Virus record (IMG/VR): IMGVR_UViG_3300014208_000023
Location: 192,001 to 256,000 of that record
Reading direction: 5' to 3' (one strand)
DNA: 64,000 nucleotides
DNA from: a virus
Lineage: Duplodnaviria > Caudoviricetes
In this document: positions 16,404 to 46,480 of the stretch, piece after piece
Numbering within the stretch: the stretch's first letter is position 1
Layout: each line of letters begins with the position of its first letter
Program-made: the position numbers and the translations under genes
The notes under the pieces: model-generated
Seen by the model: only the letters and a program-made list of their open reading frames with translations
Database searches by the model: none
Told to the model about the DNA's origin: nothing

Positions 16404-16441
16404 AAAAAAAAAAAAAACGGAGAGCATTTTCATGCTCTCCG
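16404..16441 (-). terminator. Strong intrinsic terminator after the cement-like gene
   Basis: Perfect 10-bp stem CGGAGAGCAT/ATGCTCTCCG with a 4-nt loop, followed on the minus strand by 14 T. Confidence 0.9.
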
Positions 16442-17267: not shown

Positions 17268-18629
17268 TTATTTTCCCCATATACTATTGATAAATTTCAT
17301 AGTATCTTCGTCTGGCTTATGGCCGATAAGGTCCCAAATACTGTTCTCTTGCTTGGCTTTTTGGGCATTTTCAGTGGGTTTTACCTCTGTTGGTTTCACT
17401 TCCTCTTTTGTGGGTTCCGCTTTATTAGATTTTGCTTCTTCTACTGATTTATTTACGATTCCAGTCATAGTAGCTTTTAAATTATCTATTGCTATGGATA
17501 ATGATTTGAATGAATCTCTTACGTCTTGAATATCATTTGCCACGCCAGGGACCTGTAAATAACTAACTGCTTTAGCAAAGGATCCTTGCTTGGCTTTTGC
17601 TTCGAAAGTTTCTTTTATTTTTTCAAATGTTCCAAGCATATCAATGAATATTTTTGAATCATTTTTTACTTCCTGTATTTCATTTGGAGTAACTGGCTCA
17701 TTCTTAATAGATTTAGATTGAACAGTATTTAAAATTGTAATATAATCATTAGAGGCCTTAACTAATTTGCCCATAAAATCTTCTACGGTTTTGAAATACA
17801 CTTCTTCTTCTGGAACGGCTTTTTTTAAATCACCCATCTGATTTAAAAGATCTGCAGAATTTTCTTTAATGTTTTTTACTTTTGGACTGGTATTAAAAAT
17901 ATATCCCTCAATACCACCAATTGTTCCGCCAATTAATGCTCCAACGCCAGCACCAGCAAGCGATAGCGGCCCTCCCCAAGACGTAATAATAGCGCCAACG
18001 AGCGCTCCGCTCGCAGCCCCAGCCAATGCTCCTTCGCCAACTCCGCCAATATCACTAACTAGCTTGTCGCCCTTATTTCCACCGACAAAATCTACCGCCT
18101 TATGTGCGTAGTCTCCAAGATCGCCTAAAAAATCAGCTTTTTTTTTAAACCCATCTAGGCATTCGTCTGCCAATGCGCGAAGCTCTTCTTCGTCTGCATT
18201 ATCCATATCGTTACCAATACGAATTAGTTCCATCGCCAAATCTTTTTCGGCGTCTTTTAAGAACATATCGGAGCTGCCAGATGGTGCCTTGGAAAGAATC
18301 TTGTTAATGATTATGTTTTGACGCTCGTTTATGTTTTCAACCAAAGCATTAATCTTATCATAAGATGGAGCAACAACTACCGCATTTGGATGAGCATACT
18401 CCGCTATATTGTTCTCATATTTAATATAGCTTTCTGGCTTAACGCCATATAATGCTTCTATGGTGGAAATATCATCAGATCCAACACGAGGATACGTTTC
18501 ACTTCTATAATTTTTAAGCTCTTTACTCTCTTTTTCTTTTTTCTTTTCTTCAGCAGCAGTCTTAACTAGGCCTTTTTCTTCGGCAAGTTTAGCATAAGCC
18601 TCAAACATTTCACTTTTTCGTTCTCTCAT
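17268..18629 (-). CDS. Putative inner-head/ejection protein with a glycine-zipper membrane segment
   Basis: VKTAA and KKAD sites; GALAGAASGALVGAIITSWGGPLSLAGAGVGALIGGTIGG; AHP module shared with 21878..23614. Confidence 0.5.
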   Translation of the reverse strand: MRERKSEMFEAYAKLAEEKGLVKTAAEEKKKEKESKELKNYRSETYPRVGSDDISTIEALYGVKPESYIKYENNIAEYAHPNAVVVAPSYDKINALVENINERQNIIINKILSKAPSGSSDMFLKDAEKDLAMELIRIGNDMDNADEEELRALADECLDGFKKKADFLGDLGDYAHKAVDFVGGNKGDKLVSDIGGVGEGALAGAASGALVGAIITSWGGPLSLAGAGVGALIGGTIGGIEGYIFNTSPKVKNIKENSADLLNQMGDLKKAVPEEEVYFKTVEDFMGKLVKASNDYITILNTVQSKSIKNEPVTPNEIQEVKNDSKIFIDMLGTFEKIKETFEAKAKQGSFAKAVSYLQVPGVANDIQDVRDSFKSLSIAIDNLKATMTGIVNKSVEEAKSNKAEPTKEEVKPTEVKPTENAQKAKQENSIWDLIGHKPDEDTMKFINSIWGK

Positions 18630-23646: not shown

Positions 23647-24348
23647 TTATAGTAGCAGTGCTTGTAGCGTAGAATTTATAACTGAAGGAGGAGCAGTACA
23701 TATCGCAACTATTGGACTATTTGGAAGTATTTGTCTTGTAGTAAATAATCCATGCTCATTAAGAAACAAATTTGACATTACATTATATTGCTGATTGACT
23801 TCAAACTGATCTGTCTCAAAAAGCATTCTTTGAAACCAAATCGTAACCATCTGCGACCCAAATGTAGTGTCGTCGCCAATAACATTTGGTATCTGATAGG
23901 GATATCGCACTAGTGTTTTAATTGAGTCTGGAGTGCCTGTCCCGCCTAGATCGAAATTAAGCAGGGTTCCTGCTGGAAATACTATTACTCCATTTCTAGG
24001 AATTAGCTGAACGGGAACTGGATTAGATATAAAGTAGTTACCATCAACGTTTGGGTTGTCTAGTTCGGCCTTGATGTCCATTATAGTAATGAGCTGTCCC
24101 GCCCCATTTACCATGACGTTGGCTGGGTCTGGAGTAACTATACGTTCTTCGTCCCAGCTAACTGCGCTAAATGCTTTGGTTTTAACATCGTCAGCTATGC
24201 CGAAGAAGCTCATTCCGTTGCTTGGAGTCCCCATGATTTGGGAACCGAGAACGGTAAGTGTCATCGCGGTGCCTGATTCAAATGTGGCAGAAGGATCGAC
24301 TGGGACCTGCCATGGAACGGAATTCCCCGCCTCTAAAATCCTAAGCAT
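23647..24348 (-). CDS. Second capsid decoration/cement-like protein
   Basis: Beta-rich, 233 aa; similar layout to 16476..17168. Confidence 0.5.
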   Translation of the reverse strand: MLRILEAGNSVPWQVPVDPSATFESGTAMTLTVLGSQIMGTPSNGMSFFGIADDVKTKAFSAVSWDEERIVTPDPANVMVNGAGQLITIMDIKAELDNPNVDGNYFISNPVPVQLIPRNGVIVFPAGTLLNFDLGGTGTPDSIKTLVRYPYQIPNVIGDDTTFGSQMVTIWFQRMLFETDQFEVNQQYNVMSNLFLNEHGLFTTRQILPNSPIVAICTAPPSVINSTLQALLL

Positions 24349-24516
24349 TACGCGACCTTAGCTGTGGTTGATAGTGGTAAATGGGACCAACTTTTCCCAT
24401 TCACAATATTGTTTATGCATTTTCTACTCACGTTATACTCCTTCGATAATTCGACGTTGCTATATTTGCCACTAATCAGTCTTATCCACATAAATATAAA
24501 AAATTGACTCTTTCAT
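24348..24516 (-). pseudogene. Homing-endonuclease relic: 47-aa HTH mini-ORF (24348..24491) plus an out-of-frame GIY-YIG-like start (MKESIFYIYVDKTD)
   Basis: Hand translation MWIRLISGKYSNVELSKEYNVSRKCINNIVNGKSWSHL... matches the C-terminal HTH of homing endonucleases; its stop overlaps the next start (TAATG). Confidence 0.5.
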
Positions 24517-24589
24517 TAGCGTTATACCTACCTATATATCTACTAATATACTATTATAGCGACTTACCGACAAGAAAAAGAGCTTATAC

Positions 24590-24639
24590 TATAAAATGAA
24601 GGAACCTTCCCGTTTTAAGCAGGAAGGCTTCATTTTATA
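24590..24639. terminator. Intrinsic terminator (possibly bidirectional)
   Basis: TATAAAATGAAG...CTTCATTTTATA outer arms plus an inner CCTTCC/GGAAGG stem. Confidence 0.75.
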
Positions 24640-24658
24640 TTGATGCTAGTTTTGTTCT

Positions 24659-25387
24659 TTAGAAGGATCGTAAAGTGGGCTCGCCACCCGTATTACTTTC
24701 TTCTAATGCATCTACCTTATGTAGTCTTGGACATTCTGCAGCCTGAGCCATATCTGACTCAAGCATATGATCATAACCGCATTCAGGACATATGTCCCAA
24801 AAACCATCTTCTTGTCTTTTTTCTCTTACTCCTGATTCCGGTCCGTGGTAATTGTCGTCAGTTGGTAGTTTTCCTAATCCAAACCACGACGCCACCTCAT
24901 CACCAAATCCTTGGCCCTTATTATTCATAACGCCAGATTTTGGGCCATCATCAGCCATATTACATTCGCCACAATCACTTTTTGGAGCATTAAATACCCA
25001 GCCAATATTTTCTAAATTATCTATCTGTTTCTCTGGAGTAAGAACTTCGGAGGTTACGTCTTTAATAACATCAATAAGCGTTGATGGTTTCTTCTTGGTA
25101 GTAGATTTAGATTTAGATTTCGTTTTGGTTTTTGATTTTGTTTTAGATTTCTTTTTGGCCTTTTTCTTTGCCTCTTTAACCATTGCAAACTGACCAGAAG
25201 CAATAGTCTCCATAAATTGAGTAATTATTTCTGCTTCTTCTGGCAGATTCATTGACTCGAATATTTCTGCCGAATCAGCCAGAGATTGAAGGGCTACTTC
25301 AATCCCGACCTCTTCGTTTTTAGCCGGTAGCGCTTCTAATACTGAAGCTTCAATTTCATTTGCAGAATGACTTTTTTTGAAAAACAT
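24659..25387 (-). CDS. Putative inner-head protein with a Lys-rich tract and C-terminal Zn ribbon
   Basis: Helical hairpin then VKEAKKKAKKKSKTKSKTKTKSKSK; CPECGYDH...CP. Confidence 0.55.
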   Translation of the reverse strand: MFFKKSHSANEIEASVLEALPAKNEEVGIEVALQSLADSAEIFESMNLPEEAEIITQFMETIASGQFAMVKEAKKKAKKKSKTKSKTKTKSKSKSTTKKKPSTLIDVIKDVTSEVLTPEKQIDNLENIGWVFNAPKSDCGECNMADDGPKSGVMNNKGQGFGDEVASWFGLGKLPTDDNYHGPESGVREKRQEDGFWDICPECGYDHMLESDMAQAAECPRLHKVDALEESNTGGEPTLRSF

Positions 25388-25395
25388 TTTAAACC

Positions 25396-25746
25396 TTAAT
25401 TACTAGTTAATTTACCTAATTTATGATAGCCATCAAATAAAAGAGCTATAATATAATCTTTATGAACTTCTGTTACCTTACCATCGCCAAGTTTTGGATG
25501 AACTATTAAATCTCCAATATTATATGAGTGGTTTGGATTATATTTTTTGAAATCAGAGACTTTCTCATTACTAACGGCAATCTCCCAAAGCCTTCTGAGG
25601 TCTTGCTTTGGTTTTTGCTCTGGTTCGTCAATTAGATTTTTTTGTGGTGGGTGTGGATTTCTAATGACTTCTGCAACTCTTCGCGCGGCTTGCTCTGCCG
25701 TGTGATGTCGCTCAACTGTTTTTCCTATAACAACGGTATAGCTCAT
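25396..25746 (-). CDS. Small protein with a C-terminal Tudor/SH3-like (CarD/UvrD-CTD-like) domain; frame is open a further 43 codons upstream without a start
   Basis: YNIGDLIVHPKLGDGKV motif; open frame continues to the A9 run at 25876-25884. Confidence 0.6.
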   Translation of the reverse strand: MSYTVVIGKTVERHHTAEQAARRVAEVIRNPHPPQKNLIDEPEQKPKQDLRRLWEIAVSNEKVSDFKKYNPNHSYNIGDLIVHPKLGDGKVTEVHKDYIIALLFDGYHKLGKLTSN

Positions 25747-25851
25747 TATTGATCCATCAAGATTTTTATTTTCCCAAATTCTAATTCCTGAATCGTGCTT
25801 AACAGAACGCCCGGATTGTAATTCCTTAACAATCCAGGCGATAGTTTCTTT

Positions 25852-25884
25852 ATCTGAAAGATCAGATGCTGTTACTTTTTTTTT
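25852..25884 (-). promoter_or_regulatory. Candidate -1 frameshift / slippage cassette
   Basis: A_AAA_AAG (25881-25875) inside an A9 run, then a 7-nt spacer and the hairpin ATCTGA-tctt-TCAGAT. Confidence 0.6.
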
Positions 25885-26432
25885 GAGGACTTATCGGCTG
25901 GCTTCTTGCCTTTTTTACCCTTTTGAGCGGCGCGCATTTTTTCCATGCGCTCTTTCATTGACATCTTCTTGCCTGGCTTCTTATCTTTCTTTGAGGAGCC
26001 GCTTGAAGAACTTGATGAAGAGCCACTTGAAGAAGAGCTTGATGATCCTGACTTTCCTGAATCTGGGCTTTTCTTTTTCGCAGCAGCCGTCTTTAGAATG
26101 CTATCGGCTAGAACAATCGTGGCCGCAGCTAGTCTATCCATGCCTTGGTCTTCAAGTTCAGTCGAAATCTCTAGAAGAAGTCCGGCGGTGTCTTCAAGAG
26201 AAACTGAAGCTTCTTTCTTTTCTCCTTCTTTTTCATGGCATTCACAGCCACAATCGCCATCACAATCCTCTTCGCATTTACAGTCCGAAGCAAGTTTTTT
26301 CATTTCCTCTTCGACTTCGCTTACTTCCTCCTTGCCTTCTCGTGAGAAGGCAAGTTTTTCCATACTTTTCTGGTGTTCTGCGGATTCGGCAATTTTAACC
26401 ATTTCCGCAGCAATATCAAAGTGATACTTCAT
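25872..26432 (-). CDS. Putative inner-head protein: acidic/Cys-rich N-half, Lys/Ser-rich basic tail
   Basis: KIAE, KLAF, KLAS, KEAS and KTAA sites; CKCEEDCDGDCGCECH; basic tail after ILKTA. Confidence 0.6.
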   Translation of the reverse strand: MKYHFDIAAEMVKIAESAEHQKSMEKLAFSREGKEEVSEVEEEMKKLASDCKCEEDCDGDCGCECHEKEGEKKEASVSLEDTAGLLLEISTELEDQGMDRLAAATIVLADSILKTAAAKKKSPDSGKSGSSSSSSSGSSSSSSSGSSKKDKKPGKKMSMKERMEKMRAAQKGKKGKKPADKSSKKK

Positions 26433-26433
26433 A

Positions 26434-29400
26434 TTAGTACTTTCTGCCTGAGAAGGCTAGGTCAAGCTCGGCCTGTAGATCATCACCACCTGAGTGAGAG
26501 TCACCGGTCTCGCGGATTCCGACCTGGGGAACTAGTCCTGCGGTCTTTACGGAGCCGACTGGCATTTTGGCAATTACTCTTTTGTAACTATCAAAACCTT
26601 CGTCGTTCCACTTCATTGATTCATCAACTTGGCGACCGATCGCAGCGCGTTCGTTCGTGATGAGTCCTCTGCGAGCCATTTCATTGGCAAGCTCGTATGA
26701 GCGAGCAAGCTTGATTTTGTAGGTTCCCATTTCCTCTTCAAGCTTGGCCTTTTCAGCCGCCGCCGTTAGAAGCTTAGCAAACTCCGCTCCACCATCAGCT
26801 TGACCGTAGAAGTCACGCCAGTATTTGACAACTTCTGAATCTAGTCCTTCAGCGACCAACTTATCAAGGTCTTCTTTACGGACAGTTCCAGCGACAATCA
26901 TCTTGTTTAGACGCTCGGCCTCTTTCTTAACCTTTGGGGCCGCTCTGGCTACTTCAAGCATACGCTTCTGAACTTCTGGCTTCGTTTCAACTAGGCCTAG
27001 GCTATCAGAAGGCTTGACATCAAGTTGCGTCTGGCCATCGGCAAGCTTGTTAGCATCTGCCATAACTGGATTGAACTTGATTGATTCAGCAGCGACTGAA
27101 TCCGTGATGTGCTCTGCAAGTTTCGTGCGATAAGCCGCGCGGCCTTCTTTTGTCGTTAGATCCATAGCTGCCTTTTCTACTACTTTTGCATTTGGTGGAA
27201 CTGGTTGGCCTGGAGCAAGCTCGACCACTAATCCGCTGGTTCCTCCGTCATTTACCATTCCGAAATCATCAGCATCTTCGTGCTTTGGTGATCTCTGTGT
27301 TTCTGGCTGCATATCTGGAACTGGATTTTTTTCCGTAGCTGGCATGTCTTCATAATCTGAATCGCCATGAAGATCTTGATCTAGATCTGGAAGAATGTCA
27401 TCATCACCAACATCGGTCATGCCTTCATCTAGTGTCTCTGGAGAGAACTCGCCATCTGCCTCAAAGTCATCATCACCCATGTTAAAATCTCCATCTCCAA
27501 CGTTATTTTCGTCTTCATCAGTTGCGTCCTGAGCGCTCTTTAGACGCGCAGTAAGGTTTTCAACGCCACTTGCATATTTGGCGTATGAGCGAAGAACGCC
27601 CTCGGCATCATTAAGTGATAGCTCGGCCTCTTCAAAAGCCGTTCCAATCATTCCTCTGATGCTTGCATTCTTAACTGTCTCTGAATCAGCCATATCGCTG
27701 ATTAGTTTGAGTTCTGAATAGTGAGCCTTTAGCTCGGAAAGTGATTTTTTAGCGGCAGATACTAGCATTCTTTCAAGTTTGCGACGCATCTCGGCAGCTG
27801 GAGTTAGAAGTGCGGCAGTTGCCTGTGGAAGAGCCTTAATGCCCTCTTCAAGCTCGCCCATTTGTGGTCCGGCTCCTCCAATTTCACGAACAGCCTCAAG
27901 AAGCTCGGCGGCACTATCACGAGTTTTCTCGGCCAGTTTTTCTGCAACTTCCTGTGGATCGCCACTACCACCAGCATCAGCTTCCGCATCTGGAGTAGCA
28001 GCAGGAGCCGCGCCCATATCGGCTACTGGAGCAGCAGCGGCTGGAGCTGGAGCAGCTGCTCCTGGCATTTCCTGAGCGCGCTTATATACTGAAGCGGCTT
28101 TCTCAAGACCAACTTCGCGAATCTTCTCTAGCATTTTGCCACCGAATTCTTTGGTAGCAATCATGTCGAATAGCTGGTCTGACTGACCGGCAGAAATTTC
28201 ATTAACTGAAGCGGTGAAAATAAGCTTGTCACCTTTCTCATCCTTCGCGAATACCTGCCAACCTGAATTGGCTAGATCGTCACGGCCATTTGATCCGGCT
28301 TTACGGATGAAACGAGCCTTAAGTGAAGCTCTTGAAAGCTTCTCTTTAATGGCAAGATCATCGCCATAAAGTCCATCAACATCGCCAACGCCTGGAAATG
28401 GTTTTGCCCCAACCATTTGTTTGTCACCTTTTTCACGAACCTGATCGCGAAGAGGGTCTATTTCATACTTAACTTTTCCTGGGGTTGGCTCATTAACGCC
28501 ACCACCACCGAGCCAGTAACCTTTTTTATCAAGGTTTTTCTTGGCGTTTTCAAGGGCTTCTTTACGACGAGCCGAACGCTCGCCTAATGGACGAACTTCG
28601 GACTTAATCTTATCGTCGCCTTCGCCACCATAATCTTTCGTCTGGAGCATTTGCTTGTCTTCTCCATCACGAGCTTTTTCGTTAAGAGGGTCGGCTGGAT
28701 ATTTTACTTTTCCTGGCGTTGGTTCATTAACGCCACCGCCACCTAGGTAGTATCCCTTTTTATCCATTGAGTTGTCCCGATCAGTCATAATATCCTCTTG
28801 TTTTTTGTTAAGGTCTTCCAAAGTCTGTTCCATTGATGATTTCAATATTTTGAGTTCTGTAAATAATGCTTCAATATCGGCATATACCGGAGCAATATTT
28901 TCATTTGATTTTAAATTTTCTTCTTTTGGTAGATCTTTAAGCTCTACCAGATCATTACTGATCTCCGTCAAATTTTGCTGCATTTGAGCAATCTTCTCTT
29001 GAAGATTTGAAGAATACGTGCTATTTTTAATATTTTGAGCGGACGCAAAAATAGTTCTAATGCGAGCACTCGGGTCAGCAGGATTAACTACAATTGACAA
29101 TTCAATTGGCTTGAGCTGACAATTTATTTCACCGTAACCCGTTTTATTTTTCATATGATCACAAAAATCACGCTCCGAACGAGCTACGCGGCCACAAGAA
29201 TCTTCTGCGCAGATTGCTTTTTCAACAATTGTTCCCATGCTTACTGATGTAGAGTATCCAGTTGAGACCTTACGAGCTAGTTCTGGGTATGAAACTTTAT
29301 CTAAAGCACATAGCGCAATTACTCGTTTGCTCTTAAAATCGTAATAAGTATCAAGAATAACACCACGAATAGCATCTACCGAGTTTGATTTATGATCAAC

Positions 29401-29799
29401 ACATAGTGGCTTGCCAATCCATTCCTTATGAGCCTTAACTAATTCTGACTCTGGAAAAATATCTCCATTGTTATTTTTGTATGGCCGAATATTTGAATCG
29501 CTGCATTTCCAACGAAGACTTTCTGGACCATCTCCGCCAACTTCCCAGCTAGCCGTTACTGGCTGTCCATCACGACCTGTTTTTAGGGAGCCATCATCAT
29601 TATAAAGACAAGCCTCCGCGGCCGTCATCATGAATGTGCTGAAATAAGTAAAATCATTTGCTTTTGGAGCTATTTTTTTGAGTTCTCCGGCAAACTTCTC
29701 AAATCTTTTGTTAATATCTTCATTGCTCAATACTGATTCGGCAGACTGAATTGAAGTTGGATTGAGAGCGAATGACTCGCCTTGTTTATGAAAACTCAT
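26434..29799 (-). CDS. Prohead maturation protease fused to a scaffold
   Basis: Assemblin/HK97-type protease core: NNNGDIF, LCVDHK (His), SVSMG (Ser), Zn insert C..C..CDH, IELSIVVNPADPSA; then about 850 aa of helical, acidic and coiled-coil scaffold. Confidence 0.8.
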   Translation of the reverse strand: MSFHKQGESFALNPTSIQSAESVLSNEDINKRFEKFAGELKKIAPKANDFTYFSTFMMTAAEACLYNDDGSLKTGRDGQPVTASWEVGGDGPESLRWKCSDSNIRPYKNNNGDIFPESELVKAHKEWIGKPLCVDHKSNSVDAIRGVILDTYYDFKSKRVIALCALDKVSYPELARKVSTGYSTSVSMGTIVEKAICAEDSCGRVARSERDFCDHMKNKTGYGEINCQLKPIELSIVVNPADPSARIRTIFASAQNIKNSTYSSNLQEKIAQMQQNLTEISNDLVELKDLPKEENLKSNENIAPVYADIEALFTELKILKSSMEQTLEDLNKKQEDIMTDRDNSMDKKGYYLGGGGVNEPTPGKVKYPADPLNEKARDGEDKQMLQTKDYGGEGDDKIKSEVRPLGERSARRKEALENAKKNLDKKGYWLGGGGVNEPTPGKVKYEIDPLRDQVREKGDKQMVGAKPFPGVGDVDGLYGDDLAIKEKLSRASLKARFIRKAGSNGRDDLANSGWQVFAKDEKGDKLIFTASVNEISAGQSDQLFDMIATKEFGGKMLEKIREVGLEKAASVYKRAQEMPGAAAPAPAAAAPVADMGAAPAATPDAEADAGGSGDPQEVAEKLAEKTRDSAAELLEAVREIGGAGPQMGELEEGIKALPQATAALLTPAAEMRRKLERMLVSAAKKSLSELKAHYSELKLISDMADSETVKNASIRGMIGTAFEEAELSLNDAEGVLRSYAKYASGVENLTARLKSAQDATDEDENNVGDGDFNMGDDDFEADGEFSPETLDEGMTDVGDDDILPDLDQDLHGDSDYEDMPATEKNPVPDMQPETQRSPKHEDADDFGMVNDGGTSGLVVELAPGQPVPPNAKVVEKAAMDLTTKEGRAAYRTKLAEHITDSVAAESIKFNPVMADANKLADGQTQLDVKPSDSLGLVETKPEVQKRMLEVARAAPKVKKEAERLNKMIVAGTVRKEDLDKLVAEGLDSEVVKYWRDFYGQADGGAEFAKLLTAAAEKAKLEEEMGTYKIKLARSYELANEMARRGLITNERAAIGRQVDESMKWNDEGFDSYKRVIAKMPVGSVKTAGLVPQVGIRETGDSHSGGDDLQAELDLAFSGRKY
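28460..28770 (-). repeat. Internal duplication in the scaffold: DKKGY(Y/W)LGGGGVNEPTPGKVKY..DPL...DKQM x2
   Basis: Both copies are visible in the translation; DNA differs at synonymous sites. Coordinates approximate. Confidence 0.85.
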
Positions 29800-35625: not shown

Positions 35626-37500
35626 TTATGGAGCTGGAGGTGGAGCCGCTGGCGGAGTCCCGGCCGGAGGTGGCGCTCCGCCTTCTGGCGTAGGCGCTCC
35701 TGGTGGTGGTCCGCCGGAAGGAGGCGCCCCAAGGCTTCCAAGATCTGGAATCGCTCCCAAAGGCCCACCGCCTCCTCCTGGCGCTCCCATTCCTCCACCC
35801 ATGCCGCCATCTGCTGGCGCTCCACCTGGACCACCGGCCCCAGCTTCGTATGGGCTATCTGCAGCTACGGCAGAGTCAGTTATCTCTGGAATATCATCAT
35901 CTTCACCAAGGGCACGAAGTTCATTAAGTGACATTTTGGCAAGATTTTCTTTTTCTTTCTTGCGTATAGCCTCGTTAATATCTTCTTTTCGTATTTTGCG
36001 AATCTCTTCTTCGCCCTCTAGCCCCAATGAATCATATAGAGTTTCTCTGGAAACACGCTTATCTTCTCCAGTTGATAACTGCAGAAGAATATTGATGTAG
36101 TCCATCGTATCGAACATCGTAAGACGGTTCCACTCAACTTCTGGAACAATTAGCTTCTTTTCACCGTCTTTGTATTCGTAGAAATCATTTAGCCTTGAGA
36201 TTGGTGCAAAGATCTTATTCTTTAACCAAGCAGACATCATATTACGGAATTGCATGTAGCGCTGACGAAGAACGTCTAGAGAAATGCCTCCGTTAGCATA
36301 ACTGATATCTCCTCCGCCAGTCATTACTACTTCTGGAATCATAAGTCCCATAAAAATTTCTTTTAATAGCTGAGTGATATCGCCAGAAGTATCTATGATT
36401 GCAGAGTTAGCTCCGATGCGCTCTACCGTAACCGCTTCGTGAGTGAAGATTTTGAAATTCTTATCGGCAAGAGATTGGGCCCAGGCGTTTCTCCAAACAT
36501 CAAGGTCTTCTGGAGTTGGCTTGTAATCAGCGCTTCCAACTTTCACTAAAGTAATTGGATTGATTAAGTCTTGGGCCTGTGTGAATTTGCATTCACGAAT
36601 CTGATCGAAAAGCATAAGCTGACGGAAACAACTGACTGGCAGCCCGGTTCCGCGAGTTTCATATGCACTTAATTTTCTAGCTAAATGTGAGATATAGAAA
36701 TTATCTAGAGGTATATTCTCGCCGCGTTTGATGTGTTCTATAATAGTTGGATTTATTTGTTTGCGCTGCTGAATATCAGAAGGCTTATTGGAGAACACCA
36801 GCCGCCGTAACTCGTCGTCCGGCTTTAACATTATGATTGGATCTGAATGAATAGATGTTTTCTTTACTATGATATAGTCTGGGTTCTGAAGAACAATACG
36901 TCTCCATTTAGCATTATTTTCATCAAGATCGCATTGTGGGAAAGCTTCTCCCAATAGCCAATATTCCTGGGCTACTTCAGTGCAAACATTAGCTAACCCA
37001 ATTTCTTCATTCATTTGATTGAAAAAGTTTTCAATTTTTGGATGAGCACATTTTATATTAAGTTTGCTGATGGGATATGTGCTATGAAGATTTATAGCAT
37101 TTTGAACGAATGATTGAAGGGCTAGGAATGATCTGCTCCAAGCATTAATGGTTGCCCTATCTCGTGGAAGATTAAGATTGCTATTTAGCCAGAGCGGAGA
37201 ATATATATCTGGCATCTGTCTCAATGCACTTGATGCCCCTCTCCAGTCGCCAGAAGCAGCGGTAGATGATGTTACCTGAGCGTTTTTAACCTGACCAACT
37301 GCTGTAGATAAAAACGAATTAGATGTCGTAGAAGTTTGATTGCTAGAACCATCACGCCATAGTCCGCGCTCATATTCCTTCGTTAAGGTTCCTTTTCTGT
37401 AATCAGAAACTTGATGATAAACCCTAGAGTTCATTTTAGAAGGCTGCTCTTTTGGAGGAGTCGGAACATTTATAACTGGTGGATTTTTACGATTACTCAT
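35626..37500 (-). CDS. Portal protein
   Basis: VQNAINLHSTYP...EYWLLGEAFP, RGTGLPVSCFRQL, helical clip/crown pattern; directly follows terL; Pro/Gly-rich tail; VKNAQ site near the N-terminus. Confidence 0.75.
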   Translation of the reverse strand: MSNRKNPPVINVPTPPKEQPSKMNSRVYHQVSDYRKGTLTKEYERGLWRDGSSNQTSTTSNSFLSTAVGQVKNAQVTSSTAASGDWRGASSALRQMPDIYSPLWLNSNLNLPRDRATINAWSRSFLALQSFVQNAINLHSTYPISKLNIKCAHPKIENFFNQMNEEIGLANVCTEVAQEYWLLGEAFPQCDLDENNAKWRRIVLQNPDYIIVKKTSIHSDPIIMLKPDDELRRLVFSNKPSDIQQRKQINPTIIEHIKRGENIPLDNFYISHLARKLSAYETRGTGLPVSCFRQLMLFDQIRECKFTQAQDLINPITLVKVGSADYKPTPEDLDVWRNAWAQSLADKNFKIFTHEAVTVERIGANSAIIDTSGDITQLLKEIFMGLMIPEVVMTGGGDISYANGGISLDVLRQRYMQFRNMMSAWLKNKIFAPISRLNDFYEYKDGEKKLIVPEVEWNRLTMFDTMDYINILLQLSTGEDKRVSRETLYDSLGLEGEEEIRKIRKEDINEAIRKKEKENLAKMSLNELRALGEDDDIPEITDSAVAADSPYEAGAGGPGGAPADGGMGGGMGAPGGGGGPLGAIPDLGSLGAPPSGGPPPGAPTPEGGAPPPAGTPPAAPPPAP

Positions 37501-37523: not shown

Positions 37524-39365
37524 TTATAGTCCTGGCAAATATCCAACAACTACTGGTGGGCGACGTTTTGGAGAATTATTCATCATTGAGGGATGTTTAA
37601 TACTGAATCCATTACTAACATAGAACTTATAAGCTAAATAAGCATTTAGTAATGCCATAAATCCATCGTTAGGTCCTGACTTAACATATTTGGGAGTAAC
37701 TTCTCCTGAACGACTTATACTGGGCTTAATTTCCATATTAGTGCAATGTTGTATTAACCAAGCAATTTTTTCATAATCTCCCAATGGAAATCTGATATTA
37801 CCTTTGCGCATCTGCTCATACATTTCTGCTATCCAAAAGTCTTTCTCAAAAGTAATTACTTTTGGAAAAATAGAATCATTGAACTTAATATGATCATTAA
37901 CTCTATGAGATGATGTTGAAGATAGAAATTTATCTCCCCATTCTGTTTGTAATACTTCAGATAAGTCTCCAGTAAATCCAAGGTCTATTACTCCAAGATT
38001 AACTGAATACTTCCGCATGAAGTAATTTATCGTTTCTTTTTTGGAGGCAAAATCGTTTCTTTTGAATTTTTCAGCTCGCTCTATAGTAATTCTTTGCGAC
38101 CCATTAATAGTTATTATTACTGCTGTGCTATAACTCTGTCCTTGTTCCGCTATTTTTGGACGATCGATTAGTTGCTCGATATCGTTCTTTGCGCCAATAT
38201 CTATTCCTAGGAAAACCATTTCTCCGTCATCGGGAGTTATGGTTGCCCGGAACTTCCGTTCTGGATCTCCGCAAATATCCCTGATTTCATCTGGGGAAAT
38301 TATTCCAGTTTCACCAGACCAAAAATTACCTAAAACTTCATTCTGATAAGTTCTTTCGGTATTGGTTGCGCTATGGCCCGGTTTTTCGTCCATAATCCGC
38401 TCTTTGGTATATTCTGGATTGTAAAGCTGGTTTAGATGGAAACCGATATATTTACATTCACCAAGGTCTTTAGACGCAATCCATTTTCCGCGTTCGACGG
38501 CCTCACTCTTATCTTGCTCAAATCCACAATGTTTACAGCGAACCGTAAATCCATAAAGCCAAATCTCTTCCCACTCATTTGAGTTTTGAGTAAATAATGG
38601 AAAATGTTTTTTGCACTTCTCACACCCAAGGTGATAGAATTGCTGTGATGATTCGCTCCACATATCAGAGAACATGGACCCTCTTTGTAGAGGGGTTCCG
38701 AAATATACTTGAACGCCTTTACCAACTGAACCATAATTTGCTTTGGTTAGAGTTTTAGTTGAGTTACCCAGTCCCAAGGCGGGCATCTTCTGAACCTCAT
38801 CAGCAAATAGAATATCAGTTGATTTACCCATCATTCTATTTCCATCAAGACCAATGCTTTCAATAAACATATGGTTACCGCCTTGAAATTGTTTAAAATT
38901 CAAGCTGTCGTTGCTATCAGAAGACCTATCAAGCATATTTTGCATAAATGATTTTGCTTTTTGCCCCTTGATTGGCTTATCGCTAATTACAATTGAATTA
39001 TTAATCATTGAATTGAGTTTTACCTTGGAATAGGCATTTGCTAGCTCTAATTGTGGAAAGCAGTGAATAATTCTTATTGGAGGGTTATGGCCATTACCGA
39101 ATACTCCGCTTCCCATAAAATACATTTCAAGGGCCGCACATAGAATGGTTAGTCCTATCTGCCGTCCCTTACAAATAACTATTGGAAGGCCGCCCTTTTC
39201 GAGCGCCTTCATTCCAATTGTTCTTGCGATATCGGCTAACGGTTTATACCCGTTGCCATTAATGCGATATGGCTTACCCTCTAATGTAAGGTGTTTTTGG
39301 CACCACTCAACGGGGTCCATGGCAAGTAGACCATCTTTAATTCTGTCAAATATTATATCCGTCAT
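37524..39365 (-). CDS. terL: Terminase large subunit, lambda GpA-like (probable start MTDIIF at 39365)
   Basis: Walker A KGRQIGLT, Walker B FADEVQ, GTP, Zn motif CEKC...CKHC, GFHLNQL, nuclease LGIDIG...NDGFMA. Confidence 0.9.
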   Translation of the reverse strand: MTDIIFDRIKDGLLAMDPVEWCQKHLTLEGKPYRINGNGYKPLADIARTIGMKALEKGGLPIVICKGRQIGLTILCAALEMYFMGSGVFGNGHNPPIRIIHCFPQLELANAYSKVKLNSMINNSIVISDKPIKGQKAKSFMQNMLDRSSDSNDSLNFKQFQGGNHMFIESIGLDGNRMMGKSTDILFADEVQKMPALGLGNSTKTLTKANYGSVGKGVQVYFGTPLQRGSMFSDMWSESSQQFYHLGCEKCKKHFPLFTQNSNEWEEIWLYGFTVRCKHCGFEQDKSEAVERGKWIASKDLGECKYIGFHLNQLYNPEYTKERIMDEKPGHSATNTERTYQNEVLGNFWSGETGIISPDEIRDICGDPERKFRATITPDDGEMVFLGIDIGAKNDIEQLIDRPKIAEQGQSYSTAVIITINGSQRITIERAEKFKRNDFASKKETINYFMRKYSVNLGVIDLGFTGDLSEVLQTEWGDKFLSSTSSHRVNDHIKFNDSIFPKVITFEKDFWIAEMYEQMRKGNIRFPLGDYEKIAWLIQHCTNMEIKPSISRSGEVTPKYVKSGPNDGFMALLNAYLAYKFYVSNGFSIKHPSMMNNSPKRRPPVVVGYLPGL

Positions 39366-39411
39366 ACACGTTAATACCAAAAAAAACCTATAATTATGAT
39401 ATAGAGCATAT

Positions 39412-40059
39412 ATGTCAGTGTGCCGTAAGTGCAATATATTGCTAACAAATAATAATTGGACGCCGGGTAGACGGATAGGTAAGAATTATATTTGCCAATC
39501 TTGCGCAGTTATAGTTCGTAAAATATCTTATGATGGACGCAAAGAAATTGAGCAGTCCGTCCAAAAGGCCAGGGCAAAATTTGAAAAACAAGAAACCATA
39601 AAATTCTATGGCTCTTCCTGCGCTAGTTGTGGATTAAACGAAATTAAAAAGCTAACTATCGACCATATTGATAACACTGGCGGGAAACATCGCAAAACAG
39701 GTATTGGTGACATATATGGATGGCTTTATCGTAATAAGTTTCCAACTGATAATTTTCAACTGCTATGTTATAATTGTAATTGCACCAAAACCATAGCTTT
39801 TAATGATAAACACCATCTTCGCAACAAAGAAAAAGTGATGGCCGCTTATGGCGGCCAATGTAATGATTGTGGCGTATCAGAATTAAAATATCTCACGATA
39901 GACCATTCCAACAACGATGGCGCAGAACAACGTCGGAGCCTATCTTGCGGCAAAGGCTCCATATTTTACAGATGGCTTATAGCAAACAATTTTCCGAAAA
40001 ACTTGGGGCTACAAGTATTATGCTATAACTGTAATTGTAGTAAGCTCACTTCTGATTAG
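39412..40059 (+). mobile_element. Free-standing HNH-type endonuclease with a tandem-duplicated nuclease domain
   Basis: Two copies of CxxC...LTIDH...GxxHR/QR...YxWL..N.FP...Q.LCYNCN plus an N-terminal CxxC...CxxC; antisense insertion upstream of terL. Confidence 0.8.
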
Positions 40060-45548: not shown

Positions 45549-46480
45549 TATTCTCCAGGGTTATATCCCATACGTGTCGCGCGGCTATCAAACGTTGTAA
45601 ATGTATTGTGATGATCGGAGGCATTTTGCTCTTGAACAGTGCTGCCTGGAACTTTATTTCCTTTTTGAGTAGTAAAGCCTTCATCCCAATTATATGATTT
45701 GCCGTCTAGAGCGCAACGAACCGTATGCTCACCAACTCTATATGTTGAAACTCCGGCATGATCTGGACAGTATCGTGTTGAAAGAGGTTCTTCCATTACA
45801 CGATATTCTTTATATACCGGACTTTTCTCGATATCTTTAATCGCCTGAGCTATATGATTGCCTTCTAGCTGTGATTCTCTGGTATCGTTATATTTTTTTT
45901 TTAATTGCTCAATACGATCGTCATAATCGGCCGTAGAGAATAAATAAGAATTTTTTGGAGACGCTAAAGTTAGTAGAAGGTCATCCAAAACGGCGGCTTG
46001 TTTTTGTAGAAGTTCGTCATCTGATTCGGCAAAAGCCTCGGCTACTGCGGCAATTTCATCTAGTTTTTGTGGAGTAAGTGCTTCTGGAGCAGGCTCAAGT
46101 GCTGCAATATCCTCGGCGGCTTCACGTAAAGCATCTGCGGCCTTCATAAATGAGAGGGCGACCTTATCCAATACGTCATTATCTTCTGCGGCAATTAAGG
46201 TTTCATTTTCTGAGCTTTCGAGGGCTTCAGCCATTTTAAGTAATTGATTTGATGATATTTTACCTTCAACAGGCATTTTGTTATGCTTAAGGCCTTTGTT
46301 GTCTTTATTAATTGCCCACTGACGAATTAGCACGCTCATTAATTCAAGAGATTTATCTAATGACGCAAGTAGTTCTTCGCATACTGGATCAGTAGCCAAT
46401 GAGCGGTCTTCTAATAGTTGTTCGGCCTTATAGCTTAATCCACGACAAGCTTCATTTATTTCTTCTAAAATTCTAGTCAT
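45548..46480 (-). CDS. Helical head-module protein with a C-terminal Zn ribbon
   Basis: TRYCPDHAGV...RCALDG; acidic helical hairpins. Confidence 0.5.
   Translation of the reverse strand: MTRILEEINEACRGLSYKAEQLLEDRSLATDPVCEELLASLDKSLELMSVLIRQWAINKDNKGLKHNKMPVEGKISSNQLLKMAEALESSENETLIAAEDNDVLDKVALSFMKAADALREAAEDIAALEPAPEALTPQKLDEIAAVAEAFAESDDELLQKQAAVLDDLLLTLASPKNSYLFSTADYDDRIEQLKKKYNDTRESQLEGNHIAQAIKDIEKSPVYKEYRVMEEPLSTRYCPDHAGVSTYRVGEHTVRCALDGKSYNWDEGFTTQKGNKVPGSTVQEQNASDHHNTFTTFDSRATRMGYNPGE

Follow-up and report, generated by a model that had tools for sequence, protein, structure and literature searches.

The minus strand of a 64,000-nucleotide (nt) stretch of phage DNA raises the question of whether two neighboring genes that are annotated as separate are in part expressed as one protein. 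The stretch, referred to here as the window, comprises bases 192,001 to 256,000 of IMGVR_UViG_3300014208_000023, a 428,320-bp virus record (Duplodnaviria; Caudoviricetes) with direct terminal repeats. Within it, the gene for a 186-amino-acid (aa) protein, here called the carrier (p186), ends in a run of nine adenines (A9) followed by a G and a stop codon, while the -1 reading frame continues past this stop for 159 codons, here called the cargo, into an annotated 116-aa open reading frame (ORF). From sequence comparisons we consider it probable, at roughly 0.8, that recoding at the A run, by -1 ribosomal slippage and/or RNA polymerase slippage, yields a minority 345-aa carrier-cargo fusion. A fusion of about this size had been proposed in the first-pass annotation of the window, and the proposal draws support from the coding nature of a stretch without start codons, from three replicate lineages, and from a relative (L010) in which a cargo is joined to the carrier in frame. 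The locus consists of the following features.

25872 to 26432, minus strand: carrier gene (p186; 186 aa), immediately downstream of the protease-scaffold gene
25876 to 25884, minus strand: A9 run, followed by G at 25875; the in-frame heptamer A_AAA_AAG lies at 25875 to 25881
25872 to 25874, minus strand: TAA stop of the zero frame, adjoining the slip site in a "shifty stop" position
25396 to 25875, minus strand: -1-frame ORF of the cargo, with 159 codons (VTASDL...KLTSN) and a stop at 25396 to 25398
25648 to 25860, minus strand: N-terminal alpha/beta domain of the cargo in an AlphaFold2 model, residues ~7 to 77 of translation P0001
25429 to 25590, minus strand: C-terminal module of the cargo, a WEIAVS motif and a putative Tudor/SH3-like barrel (GDLIVHPKLGDGKV)
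24659 to 25387, minus strand: p242, the 242-aa downstream neighbor, which directly follows the carrier in cargo-free relatives

The carrier gene end and the coding stretch behind it

The carrier gene ends GAT AAG TCC TCA AAA AAA AAG TAA, placing the heptamer in the zero-frame register that is correct for a -1 site of the X_XXY_YYZ class (TC[A AAA AAG] TAA). The -1 frame reads TAA GTC CTC AAA AAA AAA GTA; it has its own TAA two codons before the A run, and the TA of the zero-frame stop completes the first -1 codon, GTA (Val). The first 43 codons of this frame (VTASDL...DGSI) contain no ATG, GTG, or TTG and are in frame with ATG 25746 of the 116-aa ORF, and the cargo ORF ends 8 nt before the p242 ATG. 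All of the sequence statements made earlier about the locus (the gene end, a 7-nt spacer and hairpin behind it, the -1 stop, and the 43 start-less codons) were confirmed.

The 43 start-less codons are coding, as indicated by three independent lines of evidence: codon usage, substitutions, and predicted structure. Using a codon-usage model trained on long ORFs of the same genome, the stretch was found to have a log-odds score of 18.8 in the -1 frame, compared with 10.5 +/- 6.3 for true in-frame 43-codon windows and -2.1 +/- 7.6 for stop-free windows outside gene frames, 0.4% of which reach this score. Substitutions were read against strain L002, an approximately 96% identical 1,611-nt Logan contig from run X3. 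Four substitutions fall in the start-less stretch, three of which are synonymous in the -1 frame, with none or one synonymous in the other two frames. The proportions of synonymous (pS) and nonsynonymous (pN) differences are 0.104 and 0.010, respectively, in the start-less stretch, 0.139 and 0.005 in the carrier gene, and 0.137 and 0.018 in the 116-aa ORF; the comparison thus shows the cargo sequence to be under purifying selection, with a pN/pS of about 0.1. The third line is an AlphaFold2 model made from the single 160-residue translation (P0001), in which the predicted local distance difference test (pLDDT) values are 82 to 90 over residues 11 to 70 and an alpha-beta-beta-beta-alpha fold is formed (helices at residues 9 to 21 and 61 to 73; strands at 32 to 38, 44 to 51, and 54 to 58). 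The annotated start of the 116-aa ORF, Met45 (ATG 25744 to 25746), falls inside strand 2 of the predicted domain, and a protein beginning there would therefore lack helix 1 and strand 1 of its own modeled fold.

The N-terminal domain was compared with solved structures using VIA-align, and the best match of the P0001 model was YkuJ (2ffg_B; Z 7.4, root mean square deviation 2.1 over 64 residues, model residues 7 to 74), a Z score in the range common for unrelated small folds, so that the match serves only to mark residues 7 to 74 as one domain. A Foldseek search of the model against the PDB returned nothing at an E value of 0.001 or below. The C-terminal module has the GD-x3-H-x-K-x-GDG-x-V pattern of PcrA/UvrD/CarD-type Tudor domains. 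It falls below the curated cutoffs when scored against PF21196 and PF02559 (CarD_TRCF_RID, 14.9 to 16.7 bits versus 23); four distant homologs (P0003, P0005, P0008, and P0010) pass the PcrA_UvrD_tudor and/or CarD_TRCF_RID cutoffs, a fifth (P0007) is just short at 22.7 bits versus 23.9, and a profile of the module finds UvrD/PcrA C-terminal Tudor chains in the PDB at an E value of about 0.1. With family support that is transitive only, the sequence pattern weakly suggests a Tudor-like module, and hypothetically this could be an RNA polymerase binder. The window cargo as a whole would then consist of a small YkuJ-like alpha/beta domain, a linker, and a Tudor-like barrel, an arrangement to which the model and the sequence weakly point.

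Relatives of the window cargo are few. No match was found in 50,697 phage records using tblastn and blastn, nor any relative in scans of IMG/VR and JGI metagenome contigs, and the protein collections (5.8 billion clusters; 1.8 billion representatives) yielded a single close relative, P0002, which is the L002 copy. HMMER searches over the 1.8 billion representatives returned P0002 and distant proteins that share the Tudor-like barrel only. As no other close relatives were found, conservation of the window's own cargo is judged against near-identical strains only. The second ORF had been described as a head-module gene; it is not a conserved one but a lineage-specific cargo, absent from most relatives.

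To place the locus against the rest of the genome, 636 ORFs were each paired with their two alternative frames, and an ORF of at least 60 codons past the stop with a start-less beginning of at least 30 codons was called for. Three of the 1,272 gene-end/alternative-frame pairs passed this filter, and of these the window locus alone has a slippery run. A long -1 ORF (91 codons, the first 40 start-less) follows just one other gene end in the genome, that of the gene at positions 313264 to 313842 (minus strand), which reads CAA TTG TAA and has no slippery run. A 64-aa ORF at genome positions 102741 to 102935 (minus strand) has an in-frame A_AAA_AAG three codons from its stop and failed the filter for a long start-less -1 ORF. 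A/T homopolymers of at least 9 occur nine times in the 428 kb. Two other ways of passing the carrier stop were considered and rejected: read-through of the TAA, as the zero frame past the stop scores -24 in codon usage and the substitutions against L002 are nonsynonymous there, and a +1 shift, as the +1 frame closes after 3 codons in the window.

The junction in related phages

Twenty-eight homologs of the carrier were identified, some on contigs of 248 to 431 kb, and no match to the carrier was found in Pfam, PHROG, or the ESM Atlas. Wherever a retrieved locus reaches far enough upstream, the gene immediately before the carrier is the protease-scaffold gene, and p242 was matched by tblastn in every locus whose contig passes the junction (the L011 contig ends there). 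Synteny alone, namely a position after the prohead protease-scaffold gene in an operon with portal and terminase, points to a putative head role for the carrier. Its architecture comprises an N-terminal helical region, an invariant Cys cluster, a conserved helical segment, a Ser/Lys-rich linker, and a Lys-rich tail, KSSKKK*; in the carrier alignment (A2), C51, C53, C61, C63, and KERM are invariant. The four invariant cysteines and a nearly invariant His suggest a small metal-binding cluster. K-x-A sites, KKEA-S (KKEA|S) and (L/I/V)K(T/E)A-A (LKTA|A), are conserved in most members of the family. A resemblance of the junction to cleavage sites, noted in the first-pass annotation, is not conserved, as the junction residues are VTAS, VTAD, VSKA, VANT, and VVAQ across lineages.

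The junction was read in each carrier locus, and three classes were distinguished: cargo in the -1 frame, cargo in frame, and no cargo. The first class contains four lineages.

Window: gene end TCA AAA AAA AAG TAA; A9; -1 ORF of 159 codons; first start after 43 codons
L011: gene end TCA AAA AAA AAG TAA; A9; -1 ORF of at least 21 codons (contig ends); first start after 16 codons
L004/L005: gene end GAA AAA AAA AAG TAA; A10; -1 ORF of 140 codons; first start after 72 codons
L012: gene end GAA AAA AAA AAG TAG; A10; -1 ORF of 70 codons; first start after 40 codons

The terminal G and the directly adjacent TAA or TAG stop are kept in all four (the end is never AAA AAA AAA), so that the slip site, whose conservation had been left to be checked, is retained as A run, G, and adjacent stop in L011, L004/L005, and L012, with strain X3 as an exception (A8; see below). 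In lineages whose contigs include the end of the -1 ORF, the ORF takes up the whole space as far as the ATG of the p242 homolog, abutting it in L004 and overlapping it (TAATG) in L012. The +1 frame closes within 1 to 3 codons in these lineages, and the codon scores of their start-less parts are all positive (18.1, 6.0, 14.6, and 21.0). At an intergenic stop frequency of 6.1%, the probability that three start-less stretches all stay open is ~5e-5.

The cargos of these lineages are not homologous to one another, except for those of L011 and the window. The L011 -1 ORF begins VTADEKKPTHKREILRLWEMA, matching the C-terminal module of the window cargo in its linker and WE(I/K)A motif, and is without the window's N-terminal domain. 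In L012, cargo residues 13 to 69 match DUF7336 (profile positions 2 to 51 of 60; 22.5 bits versus a cutoff of 25, E value of 1e-4) and phrog_3002 (E value of 1.1e-4; profile positions 2 to 64 of 65), which places the beginning of the family domain ~28 codons ahead of the first start codon. The AlphaFold2 model of the L004 cargo, all-helical with a mean pLDDT of 47.6, was not usable.

A cargo in frame was found at the same extension site in L010 and in a more distant clade (L016 and P0031 to P0035). In L010, the sequence GAA AAA AAA AAG GTA GTA GCC encodes KKK, then VVAQQ..., followed by a peptidoglycan-binding-like domain. This is the product that a -1 shift on an L012-like sequence would give, fixed by one extra base, and the extra base lies beside the terminal G of the run rather than within a longer A run.

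The lineages L003, L006/7, L008/9, L013/15, L017-22, L023, and L024 carry no cargo. In these, the p242 homolog starts 0 to 9 nt after the carrier (83 nt in L006), and the carrier gene ends without a long run (AAA TAG, AAG TCG TAA, TCT AAA TAA, AGT AAG TAA, and TCC TCA TAA). The L006 gene ends AAAAAAGAAATAA, with the run broken and the G moved, and its 83-nt spacer holds a recognizable remnant of the 5' end of the window's cargo, including a 12-bp stem. An A9 or A10 run with G and stop was thus present in four of four lineages with a -1 cargo and in none of the seven cargo-free lineages, and relatives that lack an open -1 extension, which the first-pass annotation had considered as a case against a frameshift, are only those in which the cargo and the A run are likewise missing. 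The association of run and cargo appears strong in these sequences, without amounting to eleven independent points.

Probable recoding at the A run and its alternatives

On the proposed mechanism, most ribosomes would stop at the UAA and release the carrier alone, and a minority would reach the -1 frame at the A9-G tract. The likeliest event would be a one-base backward slip of tRNA-Lys(UUU) on A_AAA_AAG, or on AAG while the slow-to-decode stop occupies the A site; RNA polymerase inserting an extra A at the A9 tract may act alongside this or take its place. Either would give the same protein, ...SSKKK-VTASDL..., as the shifted ribosomes would read 159 more codons to complete the 345-aa fusion. 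A_AAA_AAG is the most shift-prone heptamer tested in Escherichia coli, owing to the better pairing of the single tRNA-Lys(UUU) with AAA than with AAG, and a slowly decoded stop in the A site enhances such slips ("shifty stops") (Atkins et al. 2016, PMC5009743). Sixteen tRNA-like genes were found in the phage genome, tRNA-Lys(UUU) among them and tRNA-Lys(CUU) not, a set that would favor slippage on AAG. Within recoding, the ribosomal route is favored over the polymerase route, roughly 60:40: the conserved G and adjacent stop argue for the ribosome, while the runs of 9 to 10, beyond the 7 needed, argue for a transcriptional contribution.

Structures that might stimulate a shift were sought downstream of the run, and two were predicted.

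25852 to 25867, minus strand: 6-bp hairpin AUCUGA-ucuu-UCAGAU, 7 nt past the heptamer; -6 kcal/mol, z -4.0
25800 to 25874, minus strand: predicted three-way junction formed by an outer stem (25874-25869/25805-25800), the 6-bp hairpin, and a 12-bp stem (25840-25808)

One of 200 shuffled sequences folds as well as the 6-bp hairpin, part of which is an insertion relative to L011 and L006. The dnaX-like hairpin claimed at the outset is thus present in the window as described; it is not conserved in L011, L004, or L012, and no 5' Shine-Dalgarno (SD)-like stimulator accompanies it. The larger fold had been missed: the 85 nt past the run fold at -28 kcal/mol, versus -12.0 +/- 2.6 in shuffles (z -6.1). 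The loop of the 12-bp stem is UAAGGAAUU and contains AAGGA. The region of the predicted three-way junction has no Rfam match, and a terminator scan of the window did not flag the 12-bp stem. The stem is homologous to a terminator-like hairpin in the 83-nt carrier-p242 spacer of cargo-free L006 (L006:2175-2257), in which it is lengthened to 15 bp and followed by a T run. Either a coding remnant has turned into a terminator or a terminator has been absorbed into the coding region. The adjacent stop codon is the only conserved candidate stimulator.

Several observations weigh against recoding at this site. The support is wholly comparative and computational, and slippage, its efficiency, the machine that slips, and entry into the capsid are all inferred. 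The slip site by itself is not diagnostic and proves nothing, because A_AAA_AAG occurs in frame 45 times in the genome's ORFs and because long runs lie inside other intact ORFs: a sense A9 at 18138 to 18146 (453-aa gene), a sense A10 at 45893 to 45902 (310-aa gene), and a 14-base A/T run at 16404 to 16417 (261-aa gene; T14 on the sense strand), all of which would be prone to polymerase slippage too. No SD-like element was found upstream of the slip site, the 6-bp hairpin is without a counterpart at that spacing in L011, L004, and L012, and no 3' stimulatory structure is conserved across these and the window. The tRNA-Lys set considered is that of the phage only, not that of its host. The interval 25800 to 25884, free of substitutions in both X3 and X5, coincides with the predicted RNA structure, and the 12-bp stem is homologous to a noncoding hairpin in L006; part of the nucleotide conservation could therefore serve RNA structure rather than coding. 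The count of four of four versus none of seven overstates independence because the lineages share ancestry and because the carrier tree gives little resolution. In that tree, L011 is placed with the cargo-free L008 lineage, and branching is otherwise largely unresolved in the clade to which all four cargo lineages and some cargo-free ones belong. Finally, the wastewater strain X3 (L002), about 96% identical to the window, has a run of eight (A8), albeit in a contig of low depth (6.9), which places its cargo in the +1 frame, and a -1 slip there meets a stop at once. Its sister strain X5, which shares with it a 12-nt deletion and many substitutions, has A9, and the A8 therefore seems to reflect either the recent shortening of a mutable tract or an error.

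The alternative closest to recoding by the ribosome, and nested within the preferred reading, is that the same fusion arises with little or no ribosomal shift, RNA polymerase adding one A on the A9/A10 tract in some transcripts. All four -1 cargo lineages have 9 to 10 A, two to three more than the heptamer needs, and runs of 9 A/T give efficient RNA polymerase slippage in vivo, the route used by Thermus dnaX (PMC5009743). The missing conserved mRNA stimulator for a ribosomal shift also fits this route and, with slips in both directions, the A8 strain could still give some in-frame mRNA (A7 or A10). However, polymerase slippage needs neither the terminal G nor the adjacent stop, both kept in four lineages, whereas A_AAA_AAG "shifty-stop" shifting does, and the tolerance of A9, A10, and T14 inside other ORFs of the genome argues against very high slippage. 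Polymerase slippage alone is therefore possible but rather unlikely. A further alternative holds that two separate proteins are made, the cargo initiating at an unconventional start (such as ATC at codon 12 or ATT at codons 30 and 32) or at Met45, with the run a by-product of the Lys-rich tail. SD motifs are used weakly across the genome (a 4-nt match precedes 45% of starts versus 22% by chance), which makes the SD context of ATG 25746, like that of any odd start, uninformative; the ATT at codon 32 has an AGGA 6 nt upstream, the 116-aa ORF is what gene callers annotate, and the heptamer is common in the genome. Separate initiation is nevertheless very improbable, since unconventional starts would be needed in three or four lineages whose cargos are unrelated and all adjoin this slip site in the -1 frame, since Met45 would remove helix 1 and strand 1 of a confidently predicted domain, since the first start codon of L012 falls in the middle of the DUF7336/phrog_3002 match, since L004 has 72 start-less codons, and since the in-frame state of L010 shows a fusion to be a viable product.

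An explanation at the level of DNA would take the A9 either as an assembly error of an in-frame gene (A10 or A7) or as a hypermutable switch or recent inactivating contraction, with the cargo silent or decaying. Near-identical strains do differ in run length (A8 in X3 versus A9 in the window and X5), which shows that it varies in nature; an in-frame state exists in L010; and contigs are blind to minority alleles. Yet A10, which the first-pass annotation had raised as a sign of misassembly, is not what the assembled contigs give: A9 was found in independent Logan contigs of two groundwater runs (X1 and X2), from which the window probably derives, and in the related freshwater strain X5. Identical copies of the L004 and L012 carrier proteins occur in 3 and 4 contigs, respectively, all four lineages would need the same one-base deficit, and no fused A10/A11 allele occurs among the 1.8 billion representative proteins. 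Moreover, the cargo is under purifying selection, the ORFs of 159, 140, and 70 codons are intact, and the in-frame state of L010 did not arise from a longer A run. Such an explanation is at least as improbable as separate initiation. A bypass like that of gene 60, from AAG to AAA at 25849 to 25851 across the hairpin, is conceivable but unnecessary and has no counterpart in L004, L011, or L012.

Recoding at the A run has its closest known kind in the C-terminal accessory domains that frameshifting appends to phage structural proteins, such as T7/T3 gene 10A/10B, the major head protein of Lactobacillus phage A2, the Listeria phages A118, A500, and PSA, and the Ig-like domains of Fraser et al. 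2006 (PMC5009743). Phage structural proteins gain such domains by +1 or -1 frameshift or in frame, and relatives may carry an Ig-like domain in frame, out of frame, or not at all (PMC5009743). The relatives of the window likewise carry the extra domain in all three states, and the proposed shift here, as in those phages, falls in the last codons of a morphogenesis-module gene, with a major short and a minor extended product (here predicted) and an autonomous accessory domain. The carrier differs in being not a major capsid or tail tube protein but a small Lys-tailed protein, encoded beside the protease-scaffold gene of huge phages, with a putative virion role; in addition, a single slip site (A9/A10-G-stop) is retained and the cargos behind it are exchanged, at least three of them unrelated and none Ig-like: one Tudor-like, one DUF7336-like, and one a 140-aa domain of no known family. 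The heptamer and its register are identical to those of E. coli dnaX, and the window hairpin starts 7 nt downstream. Unlike dnaX, which has an upstream SD-like element and a strong 3' stem-loop, the window has no SD-like sequence and a hairpin of 6 bp and -6 kcal/mol that is not conserved; the shift would extend the product by 159 residues rather than truncate it, and the genes are unrelated. Some dnaX candidates have a zero-frame stop directly after the shift site, with the longer product coming from shifting (PMC5009743). As in transcriptional slippage in Thermus thermophilus dnaX (run of 9) and Shigella mxiE, a run of 9 to 10 bases lies exactly where one extra base joins two ORFs; unlike those, the site here has a conserved G and adjacent stop, and the locus is known from DNA alone. 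The lambda-type G/GT system is similar in that a small morphogenesis gene has a conserved -1 shift close to its 3' end, which sets a fixed ratio of short to long product. The site here is in the head module (terminase, portal, protease-scaffold, carrier) with no tape measure gene next, and the downstream part is a variable cargo, not a conserved T domain. A G/GT chaperone site, which lies between tail tube and tape measure, was rejected because both the module and the neighbors, the protease-scaffold gene and p242, are wrong for it.

Operon context and meaning

The locus lies on the minus strand of a densely packed morphogenesis operon in the order large terminase, portal, several genes without a known role, protease-scaffold, 186-aa carrier, 116-aa ORF, p242, and a 233-aa gene. 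The upstream genes are as follows.

37524 to 39434, minus strand: large terminase, upstream of the protease-scaffold gene on the same strand
35626 to 37500, minus strand: portal, upstream of the protease-scaffold gene on the same strand
26434 to 29799, minus strand: prohead protease fused to a long scaffold-like region, 1121 aa; residues 108 to 241 match phrog_18299 (head maturation protease, E value of 1.9e-14)

Most gaps in the operon are below 40 nt, and the 125-nt gap between the carrier stop and the annotated 116-aa ORF is unusual. The largest gap, of 310 nt without a long ORF, is found between p242 and the 233-aa gene (24349 to 24658), and a terminator-like hairpin lies inside it on the minus strand (24629 to 24603). 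The 233-aa protein (23647 to 24348, minus strand) is 92 to 94% identical to its counterparts in L004 and L008, in which the neighboring genes are only 52 to 67% identical; this small protein is unusually constrained and may be a key structural component. In the protease-scaffold protein (26434 to 29799, minus strand), a unit of ~60 residues, KKGY(Y/W)LGGGGVNEPTPGKVKY...DPL..., is duplicated, as it is in the 45%-identical relative L003. Paralogy of the carrier and p242 was rejected (BLASTP E value of 14). An alternative genetic code was also rejected, as table 11 leaves long ORFs uninterrupted and each of the three stop codons is in use. The tRNA-like genes lie at genome positions 25058 to 25131 and 371499 to 371967, and for two of the 16, ARAGORN gives a 2-base anticodon, that is, a shortened anticodon loop. 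DNA of the 428-kb phage is contained in groundwater metagenomes, and the runs listed as containing it include no RNA run.

Gene callers split the locus into proteins of 186 and 116 aa and leave "intergenic" gaps of 125 to 212 nt in the window, L004, and L012; for this reason the N-terminal domain of the cargo and the fusion are missing from every protein database searched. A conserved recoding port would correct the annotation of a family of phages of about 250 to 430 kb. The class of mechanism is well known and is not a new principle; what is new is the modular swapping of cargo behind one retained slip site, in uncultivated huge phages. The slip site would act as a port through which different accessory domains are attached, substoichiometrically, to one conserved head-module protein. 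A more far-reaching version, which we regard as doubtful, makes the carrier a capsid-targeting or internal-head protein and the A-run/stop site a modular port that packs low, fixed doses of effectors into the capsid for delivery with the DNA, with the state of the homopolymer (A8, A9, or in frame) serving as a heritable dial from none, via a few per cent, to all. Were this so, the cargos would be Tudor-like and possibly RNA polymerase binding in the window, peptidoglycan-binding-like in L010, DUF7336, and others of no known family.

The junctions also form a natural series, from out of frame to hard-wired in frame to cargo lost with a broken run, from which the needs of a minimal A-run-plus-stop shift site may be read. 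For the biology of these phages, the locus points to small accessory domains that would be made in small amounts on a head-module protein, which would be candidates for packaged and injected host takeover factors, among them a possible RNA polymerase binder.

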